DNA of 64,000 nucleotides, taken from assembly GCF_003325475.1 (NCBI RefSeq), contig NZ_CP029495.1, positions 2,631,353 to 2,695,352 of the forward strand, written 5' to 3'. The DNA comes from Chromobacterium phragmitis. Lineage in GTDB: Bacteria; Pseudomonadota; Gammaproteobacteria; Burkholderiales; Chromobacteriaceae. The notes beneath the pieces were generated by a model that saw only the letters and a program-made list of their open reading frames with translations, did not search any database and was not told where the DNA came from. Positions 30,849 through 34,664 of the stretch are shown piece after piece; positions within the stretch are counted from its first letter, which is position 1, and each line of letters starts with the position of its first letter. The translations under genes and the position numbers were made by a program.

Positions 30849-30880
30849 TGCTTATCCATTTTTATATTCGACTAGATGAT

Positions 30881-30956
30881 TTTATCGAAAAATGAATGGG
30901 CAGGTAAGGCGGGAGAGGGCTGGACTCGGGTGGCGGAAAATAATTTATCGATATTT
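30881..30956 (+). promoter_or_regulatory. Putative upstream activator region for RtcR (two TTTATCGA-containing AT-rich boxes)
   Basis: TTTATCGAAAAAT at 30881-30893 and TTTATCGATATTT at 30944-30956, 55-115 bp upstream of the -24/-12 element. The intervening AT-rich DNA is compatible with a bending site. Assignment is inferential. Confidence 0.35.
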
Positions 30957-30997
30957 ATCAGTCTCTTGGTAATTATTTCAGGGTGTTTTCAGCCGGC

Positions 30998-31013
30998 TGG
31001 CACGGTTCTGGCA
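30998..31013 (+). promoter_or_regulatory. Sigma-54 (-24/-12) promoter TGGCAC-N5-TGGCA
   Basis: TGGCACggttcTGGCA matches the RpoN consensus (GG at -24, GC at -12). Oriented toward the SPFH-rtcB operon and divergent from rtcR. Confidence 0.75.
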
Positions 31014-31136
31014 AAGATAGCCTCGACCGAGCGGAAGCCATCATGGCCCACGGGAGGCGGTTGCCACCGCCCCGGTGCGCGGCGCCAGCCAAGCTGTCGC
31101 GGCCGCGCATGCCGCCAATGGCGGATGCCCGGTCTC

Positions 31137-31179
31137 GGCGATGAAGGGCTGAAAGCGGGTTCGATTCCCGCCATCGCCA
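31137..31179 (+). ncRNA. Candidate tRNA-like minihelix (acceptor-like stem + T-arm) in the rtcB operon leader; possible Y-RNA/YrlA-like module
   Basis: GGCGATG…GCGGGttcgattCCCGC CATCGCC A: a 7-bp acceptor-like stem closing a canonical T-arm (GGTTCGATTCC), no anticodon arm. Lies 125 nt downstream of the sigma-54 promoter and about 250 nt before the first CDS. Confidence 0.4.
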
Positions 31180-31190
31180 TCTTGGGTAAG

Positions 31191-31220
31191 GGCGCTTGCG
31201 CCTGCGGGTTCGAATCCCGC
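31191..31220 (+). ncRNA. Second T-arm-like element (GCGGGttcgaatCCCGC) preceded by a small GC hairpin, same leader
   Basis: GGCGCttgCGCC hairpin followed by a perfect T-arm consensus GGTTCGAATCC. Not part of any tRNA cloverleaf. Confidence 0.35.
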
Positions 31221-31429
31221 GTTTGACACTCTCGAGCAGCACCGAACCGGCGCGGCCCTGGCCGCCGCCGCAGGCCGCCGATGCCGGCCCCGTCCGGCGG
31301 GCAGCCGGCGGAGCCGACGCGCAGCGGAAATCACGCCGGCGCTTCGCCCCCGCCAGGCCCCTCGCCGGGCCGGACAGGCATCCGCGCTTGCGGCGCAACC
31401 GGTTCAACCATTGAAGAAAGAAAACGAAG

Positions 31430-32572
31430 ATGAAACTGTGGCGAACATTCCTGGTGAAGAAGAACGAACGCGGCCTGTTGCTGCGCGACGGCGATTTCGT
31501 GGCGATCCTGCAGCCGGGCGAATACCCATACTTCGATCCGCGCCAGCGTTACGCGGTGGAGCCGTGCCCGCTGCGCAAGGGCCGTTTCCAGCACGCGCTG
31601 GCCGATTATCTGCGCGAGCATGAGCCGGCGCTGCTGGACGAGCACTTCCATGTCGTCGAAATCGGCGACGAAGAAGTGGGCCTGCGCCTTGAGCAAGGCT
31701 CGCTGGCGGAGATCCTGCCGCCGGGCAGCCGCGGCCTGTATTGGAAAGACGCGGCGGCGCTGGAAGTGCGCAAAGCCGATTTGCGCCAGGGCTGCGAAGT
31801 GGCGGCCGAATGGCTGCCGCGCTTGACCCAGGGCAGCCTGCGCGGCAACCCGGTGGCCGGCTTGGCTGGCGTGCTGAACGTGCAGGTGCCGGCCTGGCAT
31901 TGCGGCGTGCTGCGGGTGGACGGCGACGCGCCGCGCCTGCTGCAGCCGGGACGCTACGGTTTCTGGCGCTTCAATCGCGAGCTGGAGGTGGATCTGGTCG
32001 ATACCCGCTTGCAGCCGCTGGAAGTGAGCGGGCAGGAAATCCTGACCCGCGACAAGGTAGGCCTGCGCATCAATCTGGCGGCCAACTGGCGCTACGCCGA
32101 CGTGGCGCTGGCCTTCGCCAAGCTGGCCAAGCCGGCCGACCATGTCTACCGCGAGCTGCAGTTCGGCCTGCGGGCGGCGGTGGGCGAGCGCACGCTGGAC
32201 CAGTTGCTGGAGGACAAAAAGCAATTGGACGAGGTGGTGCTGGCGCACATGCAGGACAAGCTGGCCGGATTCGGCGTGGAAGTGAGCAGCCTGGGCGTCA
32301 AGGACGTGGTGCTGCCGGGCGACATGAAGCAGTTGCTGGCGCAGGTGGTGGAGGCGGAGAAGGCGGCGCAGGCCAATGTGATCCGCCGCCGCGAGGAAAC
32401 CGGCGCCACCCGTTCCCTGCTGAACACGGCCAAGGTGATGGAAGACAACCCGACCGCCTTGCGCTTGAAGGAGCTGGAGACGCTGGAGCGCCTGGCGGAG
32501 CGCATAGACAAGATTTCCGTATTCGGCGGCTTGGACCAGCTGCTGAACGGATTGGTGAAGATCAAGGCATGA
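31430..32572 (+). CDS. SPFH/band-7 (slipin-like) domain protein, first gene of the RtcR-controlled operon
   Basis: 380 aa. Central band-7 region (…VGLRINLAANWRYADVALAFAK… then a coiled-coil with EAEKAAQANVIRRREETGA…). ATGA overlap with the rtcB start. Confidence 0.7.
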   Translation: MKLWRTFLVKKNERGLLLRDGDFVAILQPGEYPYFDPRQRYAVEPCPLRKGRFQHALADYLREHEPALLDEHFHVVEIGDEEVGLRLEQGSLAEILPPGSRGLYWKDAAALEVRKADLRQGCEVAAEWLPRLTQGSLRGNPVAGLAGVLNVQVPAWHCGVLRVDGDAPRLLQPGRYGFWRFNRELEVDLVDTRLQPLEVSGQEILTRDKVGLRINLAANWRYADVALAFAKLAKPADHVYRELQFGLRAAVGERTLDQLLEDKKQLDEVVLAHMQDKLAGFGVEVSSLGVKDVVLPGDMKQLLAQVVEAEKAAQANVIRRREETGATRSLLNTAKVMEDNPTALRLKELETLERLAERIDKISVFGGLDQLLNGLVKIKA

Positions 32573-33816
32573 ACGAACAACAAGAAAGCGAAAACATGAA
32601 CGACTATCAAACCCTGCAGGCGGCCGACGGCGCGCCGATCAAGATGTGGACCCAGGGCGTGCCGGTGGAGCCGGCCGCGCGCGACCAGTTGCTGCGCACC
32701 GCGCGGATGCCCTTCATCTACAAACACCTGGCGGTGATGCCTGACGTGCATCTGGGCAAGGGATCGACCATAGGCAGCGTGATCCCCACCCAGGGCGCGA
32801 TCATCCCGGCGGCGGTGGGCGTGGACATCGGCTGCGGCATGATGGCGGCGCGCACCACGCTGACGGCGGCGGACCTGCCGGAGAGTTTGTTCGGCCTGCG
32901 CAGCGCGATAGAGGCCGCTGTGCCTCACGGCCGCAGCAATACCCGCAGCGGGCGCGACAAGGGCGCCTGGGGCGCGCCGCCGGCAACCGTGGACGCGGCC
33001 TGGGCCAAGCTGCTGCCGGGCTTCCAGGCCATCGTCGCCAAGCATCCCAAGCTGGAGAAGACCAACAACCATAGCCATCTGGGGACGCTGGGCACCGGCA
33101 ACCACTTCGTCGAAGTGTGTCTGGACGAGGCCGATCGCGTCTGGTTCATGCTGCACTCGGGTTCGCGCGGCGTGGGCAACGCCATCGGCAACCTGTTCAT
33201 CGAACTGGCCCAGGCCGACATGCGCCAGCACATCGCCGACTTGCCGCACCGCGAGCTGGCTTATTTCCAGGAGGGCAGCCAGCACTTCGACGATTACGTG
33301 GAGGCGGTGGGCTGGGCGCAGGACTTCGCGCGCCAGAACCGCATGTTGATGATGCAGCACGTGGTGGACGCGGCGCGCAAGGAGATCGCCAAGCCTTTCG
33401 CCGCAGACGTGGAGGCGGTGAACTGCCACCACAACTATGTGCAGAAGGAAACCCACTTCGGCCATGAGGTGCTGGTGACGCGCAAGGGAGCGGTGGCCGC
33501 CCACACGGGGCAACTGGGCATCATTCCGGGGTCGATGGGCGCCAAGAGCTTCATCGTGCGCGGCCTGGGCAACGAAGAGGCGTTCTGCTCCTGCAGCCAC
33601 GGCGCGGGGCGAACCATGAGCCGCGCCGAGGCCAAGCGCCGTTTCAGCGTGGACGACCAGATCCGCGCCACCGCCCACGTAGAGTGCCGCAAGGACGCCG
33701 ACGTGATCGACGAGATTCCGATGGCCTACAAGGACATCGACGCGGTGATGGCGGCGCAGGACTCGCTGGTGGAAGTGGTGCACACGCTGCGGCAGGTGGT
33801 GTGCGTGAAGGGATAG
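32569..33816 (+). CDS. rtcB: RNA-splicing ligase RtcB (3'-phosphate/2',3'-cyclic-phosphate RNA ligase)
   Basis: About 415 aa from MNEQQESENMNDYQ…. Conserved RtcB metal/GTP-site motifs (GVDIGCGM, GTGNHF, SHGAGR) and C-terminal …HTLRQVVCVKG. Confidence 0.9.
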   Translation: MNEQQESENMNDYQTLQAADGAPIKMWTQGVPVEPAARDQLLRTARMPFIYKHLAVMPDVHLGKGSTIGSVIPTQGAIIPAAVGVDIGCGMMAARTTLTAADLPESLFGLRSAIEAAVPHGRSNTRSGRDKGAWGAPPATVDAAWAKLLPGFQAIVAKHPKLEKTNNHSHLGTLGTGNHFVEVCLDEADRVWFMLHSGSRGVGNAIGNLFIELAQADMRQHIADLPHRELAYFQEGSQHFDDYVEAVGWAQDFARQNRMLMMQHVVDAARKEIAKPFAADVEAVNCHHNYVQKETHFGHEVLVTRKGAVAAHTGQLGIIPGSMGAKSFIVRGLGNEEAFCSCSHGAGRTMSRAEAKRRFSVDDQIRATAHVECRKDADVIDEIPMAYKDIDAVMAAQDSLVEVVHTLRQVVCVKG

Positions 33817-33857
33817 AAAATAGATGGAGCCGGCCTGCGGGCCGGCGGAAGGACGAT

Positions 33858-34664
33858 ATGTACGCATTCAAATATGACCATCCGCTGGACGACGGCGTGC
33901 GCCGGCGGGTGATGGACGAGCTGGCCGCGCTGGAGCGCCGCCGCGATGTGCGGGTGCTGTACGCCTGCGAGTCGGGCAGCCGCGCCTGGGGCTTCGCCTC
34001 GCCGGACAGCGATTACGACGTGCGCTTTCTGTATGTGCATCGCCCCGAGTGGTATCTGCGGGTAGAGCGGCAGCGCGACGTGATCGAACAGCCTCTGGAC
34101 GACGAACTGGACGTCAGCGGCTGGGAGCTGCGCAAGGCGCTGCAATTGCTTAACCGTTCCAATCCGACGCTGTTCGAGTGGCTGCAATCGCCGCTGGTGT
34201 ACCGCGCCGACGAGGACGCGACGGCGGCGTTGCGCGAGCTGATGCCGGATTTCCACTCGCTGGCGCGCTGCCGCTGGCATTACCTGTCGATGGCGCGCAA
34301 GCACCATCAAGGCTACCTGCAAGGCGAAACCGTGCGGCTGAAGAAGTATTTGTACGTGTTGCGGCCGCTGCTGGCGGTGCGCTGGCTGGACGCCGGCCGT
34401 GGCTTGCCGCCCATGCGCTTCGCCGACCTGGCCGCGGCGACGGTGGACGACGCGCGATTGGCGGACGAGATCAATCATCTGCTGGCCGTCAAGATGGCCG
34501 CCGGCGAGGCGCGTCAGGGACCGCGACTGCCCAGGCTGGACGCTTTCATCGCCGCCATGCTGGCCGAGCCGGCGCCTCCGCTGCCCGGCGGCCATGGCGG
34601 CGACCCGAGGCGGCTGGACGCGCTGTTGCGCCGGTTGGCGCTGGGGGAGGCGCTGGCTGCCTGA
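33858..34664 (+). CDS. Pol-beta-superfamily nucleotidyltransferase domain protein, last gene of the rtcB operon
   Basis: 269 aa. N-terminal GS…DxD minimal nucleotidyltransferase signature (ESGSRAWGFASPDSDYDVRFLYV) followed by a helical domain. Confidence 0.65.
   Translation: MYAFKYDHPLDDGVRRRVMDELAALERRRDVRVLYACESGSRAWGFASPDSDYDVRFLYVHRPEWYLRVERQRDVIEQPLDDELDVSGWELRKALQLLNRSNPTLFEWLQSPLVYRADEDATAALRELMPDFHSLARCRWHYLSMARKHHQGYLQGETVRLKKYLYVLRPLLAVRWLDAGRGLPPMRFADLAAATVDDARLADEINHLLAVKMAAGEARQGPRLPRLDAFIAAMLAEPAPPLPGGHGGDPRRLDALLRRLALGEALAA

Follow-up and report, generated by a model that had tools for sequence, protein, structure and literature searches.

An RtcR-controlled RNA-repair operon without rtcA in Chromobacterium phragmitis, probably of the Band-7/tRNA-like RNA/RtcB/RlaP type

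SPFH/Band-7 modules with 'a novel tRNA-like molecule' and a novel ligase-associated nucleotidyltransferase are reportedly described in the abstract of the 2016 Nucleic Acids Res article of Burroughs and Aravind. Here, a module that resembles them is described at positions 29253-34664 of a 64-kb stretch of Chromobacterium phragmitis DNA (the window, as the whole analysed stretch is called below), where the regulatory gene rtcR lies divergent from an operon formed by a long leader, an SPFH gene, the RNA ligase gene rtcB and rlaP (Table 1). Citing Burroughs and Aravind 2016, a passage of bioRxiv 10.1101/312249 describes a transfer RNA (tRNA)-like RNA of this type, the b7a-tRNA, whose gene in some bacteria neighbours those of RtcB and a Band-7 protein and which is predicted to be the cognate RNA of the latter. 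Through this citation, the remark in the original prediction for this DNA that such a composition had been noted in comparative-genomics surveys could be traced to the 2016 work. On sequence comparison, the locus is a member of the predicted Band-7/b7a-tRNA/RtcB (+RlaP) type, and its gene composition was already known. It shares with these systems the SPFH gene next to rtcB, a tRNA-like RNA next to the SPFH gene (in the window and in 77 of 80 related loci) and RlaP in the operon. It differs in that the module corresponding to the b7a-tRNA is reduced to a T arm and a short hairpin, with no cloverleaf fold, and in that a second tRNA-like module and a covarying 5' domain are added upstream of it, the 2016 description of the b7a-tRNA being known here via citing papers only.

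In Pseudomonas aeruginosa, the operon under RtcR comprises PA4582 (SPFH), rtcB, PA4584 and rtcA (PMC8619066), and the SPFH protein PA4582 has been named PaFlo8 (PMC13086221). The regulator, the gene order and the protein families are the same as in C. phragmitis, PA4584 being RlaP, but rtcA is present in strains PAO1 and PA14 (PMC8619066, PMC12776372) and missing from the window. The pattern of RNA reduction is also the opposite, since in the P. aeruginosa-type locus L081 the first tRNA-like module is a bare hairpin and the second a cloverleaf. With the order SPFH-rtcB-rlaP-rtcA described in P. aeruginosa (PMC8619066, PMC12776372), and the rtcA-less gene set found in 10 of 58 related loci, the 'variant regulon' that had been proposed is not supported. 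Nor is this type of operon without experimental characterisation, as had been thought: two Pseudomonas RlaPs have been assayed in vitro (PMC12776372) and PaFlo8 has been deleted (PMC13086221).

The better-known rtc operons are less similar. The Escherichia coli rtcR/rtcBA locus shares the divergent CARF-AAA+ RtcR and the sigma-54 promoter driving rtcB, but it has rtcA and, according to the literature, no SPFH gene, RlaP or tRNA-like leader RNA. The Salmonella rsr-yrlBA-rtcBA operon shares RtcR control and the presence, before rtcB, of a ring or scaffold protein and an operon-encoded tRNA-mimicking RNA. However, the Salmonella scaffold is Ro60/TROVE (a Ro60 orthologue with Y RNAs) and that of C. 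phragmitis is SPFH; likewise, YrlA is a permuted tRNA-like domain on a Ro-binding stem, whereas the C. phragmitis RNA is made of linear tandem modules.

In our view, the locus is likely to be an RNA-repair operon controlled by RtcR and sigma-54, of the 'Band-7 (SPFH) + band-7-associated tRNA-like RNA + RtcB + RlaP' type, without rtcA. The leader was compared across 80 loci encoding relatives of the window SPFH protein (from Pseudomonas, Burkholderia, Ralstonia, Acidovorax, Rhodocyclales, Undibacterium, Chitiniphilus, Formivibrio and others), and two covariance models were built from these relatives only, with the window excluded: R1, which covers the 5' domain, and R2, which covers both tRNA-like modules, the 3' hairpin and the 3' motif. 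In the window, R1 matched positions 31030-31134 (50.1 bits, E=3e-11; next best match, 15 bits) and R2 matched 31118-31253 (39.4 bits, E about 5e-11). R2 also matched the true tRNA genes of the window, as expected for a tRNA-like model. The tRNA-like RNA beside the Band-7 gene was thus recognised through a model built from relatives with a cloverleaf in module 2. The R2 element lies directly upstream of the SPFH gene in the 77 loci mentioned above, and the 5' domain of R1 immediately precedes it in 73.

Covariation was strong in both parts. In the R2 region (75 sequences), 93.5% of the cells were paired and 26 of the 36 pairs showed a compensatory change; the covariation score was 0.464 against 0.149 after shuffling, none of 500 shuffles reached the observed score, and sliding the partners by 1-3 columns gave at most 0.067. 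For the R1 region (73 sequences) the corresponding figures were 93.9% of cells paired, 20 of 25 pairs and a score of 0.526 against 0.193 (0 of 500 shuffles; slid partners, at most 0.106). Both alignments were fitted to the models, which favours structure; independent RNAalifold analysis of a MAFFT alignment found compensatory changes in 27 of 37 predicted pairs. The acceptor and T stems of module 1 covary over 75 loci (helices 1-2), and the module 2 cloverleaf covaries in the relatives (helices 3-7). On this comparative evidence, which is the real evidence for structure rather than the single-sequence fold (z = -2.9), the leader is a conserved structured RNA with strong covariation. The '400-nucleotide structured leader' of the original prediction is therefore structured, but not a plain leader, since the region encodes a conserved tRNA-like RNA. 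The T-arm motif GGTTCGAnTCC occurs in it at 31158 and 31207, other copies in the window lying only in real tRNA genes, and in nearly all rtcR-linked loci the rtcR-SPFH spacer, of 600-730 nucleotides (nt), carries two T-arm motifs about 70 nt apart on the coding strand. The RNA ends 176-230 nt before the SPFH start in the five loci checked.

In C. phragmitis, a junction helix of the 5' domain (GGC 31045-47 / GCC 31114-16) encloses two hairpin arms (31050-31076 and 31077-31108), and the domain holds the near-invariant ATGCCGCC (31109-31116). A possible outer closing stem around it (31025-29 / 31130-34; 31037-41 / 31118-22) is only moderately supported, with 74% of cells paired, a score of 0.285 against 0.206 after shuffling and a MAFFT register that varies between clades. 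Module 1 consists of a 7-base-pair (bp) acceptor stem (31137-43 / 31172-78), an 11-nt linker that replaces the D and anticodon arms, and a T arm (31155-31171) with a 5-bp stem and the loop TTCGATT. A 12-bp minihelix of acceptor stem and T arm is the minimal substrate shape for RNase P and the CCA enzyme. Module 2 retains a D-loop remnant, TGGGTAA, the hairpin GGCGC-TT-GCGCC (31191-31202) and the T arm GCGGG-TTCGAAT-CCCGC (31204-31220); its acceptor, D and anticodon stems are gone, and in the R2 alignment 9 nt replace the 34 model positions of the D and anticodon arms. The hairpin that precedes the 3' motif in relatives is deleted, and the motif itself belongs to a block that is nearly invariant (alignments A2, A3 and A5). 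Altogether, the C. phragmitis leader RNA is among the most reduced copies: its 39.4 bits with R2 compare with 53-172 bits for the other full-length SPFH-linked copies, and only a weak match in the related locus L068 is lower.

The 3' motif (31236-31250, consensus GCAGUACCCGCCGG) resembles a block of the 5' domain (31106-31116, consensus GYAUGCCGCCG), with which it shares GUA-YS-CCGCCG. It is too invariant for a covariation test of any pairing partner. Long-range pairing of the motif with the 5' GGCCCACGGG or CCGGUG segments, considered by eye, was rejected, as the local partners covary instead (CACGAG / CTGGTG in Burkholderia).

Other identities were also considered for this RNA. It matched no family of Rfam 15; the only match was a sub-threshold one to the tRNA-like domain of transfer-messenger RNA (tmRNA) at 31137-31182, with 32.5 bits against a threshold of 47 and 326 model positions skipped. 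As it covers only an acceptor stem and a T arm and ARAGORN was negative for tmRNA, this identity was discarded. ARAGORN found neither tRNA nor tmRNA in 28500-36000. A genuine tRNA gene was rejected with ARAGORN and the Rfam tRNA model both negative and only T arms and one acceptor stem left, and the leader does not form the cloverleaf of a canonical tRNA. A Y RNA of the YrlA kind was rejected as well: no match was found in Rfam 15 at E<=1, rsr is absent from the operon and the scanned flanks, and the modules stand in linear tandem and are not permuted.

The tRNA-like modules vary between lineages. In several Pseudomonas loci both are complete cloverleaves, often with tetraloop-capped 'anticodon' stems, and in beta-proteobacteria module 1 is without the D arm and module 2 forms a full cloverleaf whose 7-nt loop is not conserved; module 1 thus ranges from the full cloverleaf of some Pseudomonas through the D-armless form of beta-proteobacteria and the minihelix of C. 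phragmitis to the bare hairpin of P. aeruginosa. ARAGORN and Rfam RF00005 call many of the relatives' modules tRNAs, with anticodons that are undefined or inconsistent, and those given by ARAGORN for module 2 differ by locus (CAT, AAT, GGT, TAT, AAC, AAG). A reduced module 2 of the same kind as in C. phragmitis was found in a Burkholderia locus (L076). The P. aeruginosa-labelled locus L081 carries the 5' domain and the tRNA-like RNA at 4518-4770 (+). In the intergenic regions (~5565-6000) of L003, L004 and L068, from P. donghuensis, P. aegrilactucae and P. entomophila, the 5' domain is kept (R1, 49-55 bits) and both tRNA-like modules are lost (R2 match none or weak); rtcA is also missing there. 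A link between the loss of rtcA and a reduced RNA was discarded as inconsistent, since L005, L013 and Burkholderia loci without rtcA keep both modules.

A wider proposal, which we put forward tentatively and hold to be possible rather than probable, is that the b7a-tRNA may be one module of a larger composite RNA of ~230-300 nt outside Rfam. This composite would comprise a covarying 5' multi-helix junction domain and the lineage-variable module 1, followed by the b7a cloverleaf and then by a hairpin and a single-stranded motif that is invariant. It would be produced as the 5' leader of the SPFH messenger RNA (mRNA) and would constantly accompany a soluble, possibly vault-like SPFH protein, also in loci without rtcR or rtcB, and C. 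phragmitis would hold a natural minimal version. If this is true, the C. phragmitis copy would define the essential core, namely the 5' domain, two T arms with a D-loop GG remnant, and the 3' motif. The residual novelty would lie in the extent and modular plasticity of the RNA, as compared with the 2016 b7a-tRNA in the form given by citing papers.

Gene composition was counted in the 58 of the 80 loci with enough flanking sequence. The SPFH gene was accompanied by rtcR, rtcB, rlaP and rtcA in 25 of them, by rtcR, rtcB and rtcA in 10, by rtcR, rtcB and rlaP, as in the window, in another 10, by rtcR and rtcB in 4 and by rtcB only in 4; it stood alone in 3, and 2 had other compositions. The order rtcR <> RNA-SPFH-rtcB(-rlaP)(-rtcA) recurs in Pseudomonas, Burkholderiales, Rhodocyclales and Neisseriales. 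Downstream of SPFH, most of the related loci have RtcB, and RlaP is present in 36 of the 58, and so the three genes singled out in the original prediction are indeed conserved together. Other loci without rtcA were found in Pseudomonas and Burkholderia; rtcA is present in L001 (Chitiniphilus), the closest relative found. In L037, L040 and L073 (~5400-7130 in each), the RNA and SPFH occur without rtcB, rlaP or rtcA within 6 kb downstream. The RNA and SPFH are kept together in loci without rtcR and in these three without rtcB, and because the pair persists where either gene is missing, the comparison points to it as the constant core of the system. In the rtcR-less SPFH loci (Aquabacterium, Piscinibacter and Burkholderiales metagenome-assembled genomes, MAGs), arrays of up to ~10 ordinary tRNA genes immediately precede the 5' domain, the tRNA-like RNA and SPFH (Table 1), which suggests co-transcription with a tRNA operon in place of RtcR control.

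The SPFH protein (Pfam Band_7, E=2e-27) has ~7,900 homologues; it is 100% identical to a database protein of C. phragmitis and 63-64% identical to the P. aeruginosa protein. In an AlphaFold2 model (mean predicted local distance difference test score, 82.6), it shows an N-terminal beta-rich domain, the SPFH domain and long C-terminal helices; the SPFH domain and long helices of the stomatin/flotillin/HflK/C scaffolds were thus recognised by Pfam, AlphaFold2 and Foldseek. Foldseek searches of the PDB matched the stomatin 16-mer (E=2e-15), also HflK/C, prohibitin, erlin and flotillin (E=2e-15 to 1e-9), and the major vault protein (E=3e-12 to 4e-9 over >420 alignment columns, gaps included), the template-modelling scores of the vault protein being low (~0.38 query-normalised, 0.21 target-normalised). 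By sequence, stomatin was matched in the PDB (E=1e-20). The predicted fold is similar to those of stomatin, HflK/C, prohibitin, flotillin and vault, but stomatin, HflK/C and flotillin are membrane-anchored, whereas the C. phragmitis protein has no predicted anchor. A hydropathy scan of the protein found no transmembrane or hydrophobic segment, and hence no N-terminal membrane anchor, the highest 19-residue Kyte-Doolittle mean being 1.19 at residue 142, near the start of the SPFH domain. Membrane anchoring was rejected on this absence, and the membrane scaffold with membrane-associated targets originally envisaged is not supported, because the hydrophobic segment is missing and the best structural neighbours are cage- or ring-forming SPFH proteins. 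Judging from the model, the protein is probably soluble and cage-like, and a soluble oligomeric shell or ring is a better guess than a membrane scaffold. In the vault, too, a soluble SPFH-type shell protein goes with a small RNA, as the C. phragmitis pair would.

The product of rtcR contains the Pfam RtcR/CARF domain (E=3.4e-80), Sigma54_activat (E=4e-48) and AAA_lid_14, and is 57-72% identical to the divergent rtcR products of the related loci. The promoter element TGGCACGGTTCTGGCA is the sole match to TGGCAC-N5-TKGCW in the window, with 0.3 expected by chance. A single match alone is weak evidence, and it is the positional conservation that carries the case: the element stands at the same position in 59 of 62 homologous rtcR-linked rtcR-SPFH intergenic regions, in agreement with the 'clean -24/-12 promoter' first read from the sequence. 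The control region upstream contains TTATCGA twice and partly conserved blocks in the alignment of the 62 intergenic regions, which presumably include upstream activating sites of RtcR. The locus thus has the divergent CARF and AAA+ RtcR, the -24/-12 promoter and the rtcB gene of an RtcR-regulated rtc operon, and lacks its rtcA.

RtcB matched its Pfam family over the full length (E=7e-127) and is 65-83% identical to the RtcBs of related loci, aligned from residue 1 in L001. Ligases of this family seal 3'-phosphate (3'-P) or 2',3'-cyclic-phosphate (2',3'-cP) ends to 5'-OH ends. The nucleotidyltransferase is RlaP (PF10127, E=2.3e-97, profile positions 2-248 of 249), with the catalytic motif GS...DSDYD (ESGSRAWGFASPDSDYDV) and a third acidic residue (Asp) in LDVSGWE conserved with the Pseudomonas orthologue. 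Its identity to the RlaPs of related loci is 46-74% (60-66% for Pseudomonas loci), and no sequence match was found among solved PDB structures. The GS...DxD fold expected of it is borne out by this full-length match with the motif intact, but 'minimal' is not an apt description of a 268-amino-acid (aa) RlaP, a family described with a nucleotidyltransferase domain and a helical domain. In vitro, RlaPs from the rtcB-rlaP-rtcA operons of P. fluorescens and P. aeruginosa extend RNA 3'-OH ends by 1-2 nucleotides, and for one of the two a solved structure exists (PMC12776372, 2025 preprint). The name RlaP reportedly goes back to Burroughs and Aravind 2016.

Pfam confirmed every gene named in the original prediction, each part lying where it had been placed, and the domain identities agree with an RtcR/sigma-54-controlled RNA-repair module of SPFH, RtcB and a Pol-beta-superfamily nucleotidyltransferase. 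Translational coupling, which had been claimed for all three genes, applies to SPFH and rtcB, whose stop and start overlap as ATGA, but not to rtcB and rlaP, which do not overlap and are separated by a 41-nt spacer with a 7-bp GC hairpin. As this hairpin has no T run, it was not called a terminator, and it could be a stabiliser or a processing site instead. No intrinsic terminators or sigma-70 promoters were found in 30700-35200, nor any terminator-like site between the leader RNA and the SPFH open reading frame (ORF) in that interval. The predicted absence of rtcA from the window holds: tblastn with an RtcA sequence gave no match at E<=1e-3 in the 64 kb, and the same query finds RtcA in 40 of the 80 related loci, its L001 match being confirmed by Pfam RTC (E=1e-79). 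Every ORF from rtcR to rlaP is accounted for and none is rsr. The predicted absence of Rsr likewise stands for the operon and the scanned flanking genes, where no rsr was found, the rest of the window not having been scanned for TROVE/Rsr.

A mechanism can be proposed by joining these observations to what is known of the homologues. Salmonella RtcR is activated by tRNA fragments with 2',3'-cP ends, bound by its CARF domain (PMC7790460). By analogy, damage by ribotoxins or anticodon nucleases would generate 2',3'-cP tRNA fragments that bind the CARF domain of the C. phragmitis RtcR, which would then activate the sigma-54 promoter. The transcript would open with a structured RNA of ~230 nt (5' domain, two tRNA-like modules and single-stranded motif) and run into SPFH, rtcB and rlaP, as sequence and comparison indicate. 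RlaP, like its Pseudomonas homologues, would tail 3'-OH ends of damaged RNA with 1-2 nucleotides, and RtcB would join 3'-P or 2',3'-cP ends to 5'-OH ends. The soluble SPFH protein may assemble into a ring or cage, as stomatin, HflK/C and vault do, with the tRNA-like leader RNA as the cognate partner of the oligomer, possibly after processing of the RNase P/RNase Z type, the 12-bp module 1 minihelix having the simplest shape that these enzymes take as substrate. Together, RNA and SPFH protein might recruit or organise tRNA-shaped substrates and repair enzymes, as a Y RNA does with Ro60. With rtcA missing, both induction and ligation would require nucleases whose cleavage itself produces cyclic-phosphate ends.

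Several points weigh against the repair operon with a tRNA-like partner RNA, as just outlined. The b7a-tRNA was explicitly without experimental validation as of 2018 (bioRxiv 10.1101/312249), and no later report was found on b7a-tRNA or on a tRNA-like RNA with SPFH/Band-7. Deletion of PaFlo8 gave no phenotype in assays of growth, virulence factors, motility, biofilm and oxidative stress (PMC13086221). RtcA has a share in activating RtcR in E. coli and Salmonella (PMC7790460, PMC9650030), and it is absent here. The products of RlaP end in 3'-OH and are not ligatable by RtcB, a problem raised by the authors themselves (PMC12776372). Moreover, the window RNA scores below the other full-length SPFH-linked copies, L068 apart, and with the module 2 cloverleaf lost, a role needing the full tRNA shape could be lost here.

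The main alternative is that the leader acts purely in cis, as a processing or stabilising signal for RNase P or RNase Z/E, or as an attenuator of SPFH-rtcB-rlaP translation, with no separate RNA cofactor. The RNA is indeed always encoded on the SPFH strand, and ~176-230 nt separate it from the SPFH start codon in the loci checked, with no terminator-like site between RNA and ORF in the window; module 1 of the window has the shape that RNase P and the CCA enzyme minimally require, and the rtcR-less loci place the RNA between tRNA arrays and SPFH, like a tRNA-mRNA co-transcript. However, ~290 nt would be more than a processing signal needs, as would the covarying 5' domain and the invariance of the D stem, the T loops and the 3' motif, and the element is linked to SPFH, not to rtcB or the promoter. 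Cis and trans roles can also coexist. We regard a purely cis-acting leader as rather unlikely.

The C. phragmitis copy is quite unlikely to be a decaying, non-functional remnant, given that ORFs, promoter and the conserved core of the RNA are all intact. The loss of rtcA, of the module 2 arms and of the 3' hairpin would fit decay, as would the low R2 score and the presence of rtcA in the closest relative found, from Chitiniphilus; but all four ORFs have full-length Pfam matches, the promoter is a perfect match, and the RNA still has its 5' domain and 3' motif, the T arms of both modules and the GG remnant of the D loop. A Burkholderia locus (L076) shares the reduced form of module 2, and rtcA-less loci recur in both Pseudomonas and Burkholderia. 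Finally, it is very unlikely that the modules serve as anticodon-nuclease bait, absorbing toxin or yielding a fragment that switches on RtcR by feed-forward. In its favour, RtcR is activated by tRNA fragments, a decoy role has been suggested for YrlA (PMC7790460), and no part of the RNA varies more than the anticodon-loop region of module 2. However, the 'anticodon' arm is tetraloop-capped in many Pseudomonas loci and deleted whole in the window and L076, leaving no nuclease target there, and as the RNA is placed behind the RtcR-dependent promoter, little of it would be present before induction.

The locus is one more example of a type of repair operon predicted in 2016 and now partly characterised biochemically, in which the role of the SPFH protein and the tRNA-like RNA in RNA repair is a long-standing gap. 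The outcome of the analysis is a structural model of the RNA and two covariance models, with strong covariation over ~75 loci, and the natural deletion variants, that of C. phragmitis included, indicate which parts of the RNA are dispensable. The RNA model and the pairing with SPFH make pull-downs, processing assays and cryo-electron microscopy designable, for example in P. aeruginosa.

Table 1. Coordinates of the module in the C. phragmitis window and of tRNA arrays in related loci without rtcR
Feature	Position	Strand	Basis
rtcR (531 aa; CARF-type sensor and sigma-54 AAA+ activator)	29253-30848	-	Pfam
Control region, AT-rich, between rtcR start and promoter	30849-30997		
Sigma-54 (-24/-12) promoter TGGCACGGTTCTGGCA	30998-31013	+	
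Leader (409 nt)	~31021-31429	+	
Leader RNA, 5' domain	31025-31134	+	Covariance model R1
Leader RNA, tRNA-like module 1, minihelix form	31137-31178	+	R2 alignment, T-arm motif, sub-threshold Rfam match
Leader RNA, tRNA-like module 2 (b7a-tRNA counterpart), reduced form	31183-31220	+	R2 alignment
Leader RNA, conserved 3' motif GCAGCACCGAACCGG (family consensus GCAGUACCCGCCGG)	31236-31250	+	R2 alignment
Leader remainder: GC-rich hairpins, then purine-rich stretch up to SPFH start	31251-31429	+	Minimum-free-energy fold
SPFH/Band-7 ('slipin') gene (380 aa)	31430-32572	+	Pfam Band_7
rtcB (3'-phosphate/5'-OH RNA ligase; 415 aa)	32569-33816	+	Pfam RtcB
GC hairpin GCCGGCC-TGCG-GGCCGGC (7 bp, perfect) in rtcB-rlaP spacer	33829-33846	+	Sequence reading
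rlaP (RNA-ligase-associated Pol-beta-superfamily nucleotidyltransferase; 268 aa)	33858-34664	+	Pfam PF10127
tRNA array, rtcR-less locus L029	4145-4705		
tRNA array, rtcR-less locus L052	3142-4845		
tRNA array, rtcR-less locus L059	1334-2198		
tRNA array, rtcR-less locus L047	4452-4786		
tRNA array, rtcR-less locus L050	4254-4695		
tRNA array, rtcR-less locus L074	4240-4839		
tRNA array, rtcR-less locus L039			
tRNA array, rtcR-less locus L078			

The flanking genes scanned with Pfam encode a GGDEF/EAL sensor, a cytochrome c, a flavin adenine dinucleotide (FAD) oxidase, a racemase-like protein and a chitinase, and are unrelated to RNA repair; a small ORF beside rtcR (28714-29118) had no Pfam match. 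Elsewhere in the window, two convergent tRNA clusters lie ~500 nt apart, Ser-Arg-Glu at 6586-6841 (+) and Glu-Arg-Glu-Arg at 7357-7677 (-).

Additional genes were observed in some of the related loci. In L081, a HEAT-repeat protein after rtcB (7422-8795 +) replaces RlaP and RtcA, and a NADAR-domain gene lies beside rtcR (2136-2690 -). In some loci the gap between SPFH and rtcB reaches 400-850 nt and contains extra ORFs, as in L008, with a 135-aa treble-clef zinc finger (7162-7569; zf_Tbcl, E=1e-12), and in L061, with a 264-aa protein that has no Pfam match (7162-7956). In an Acidovorax MAG (L041), the RNase P RNA gene (2115-2466 -; RF00010, 204.8 bits) abuts the 3' end of rtcR, a position of note because the neighbouring operon encodes tRNA-like RNAs.

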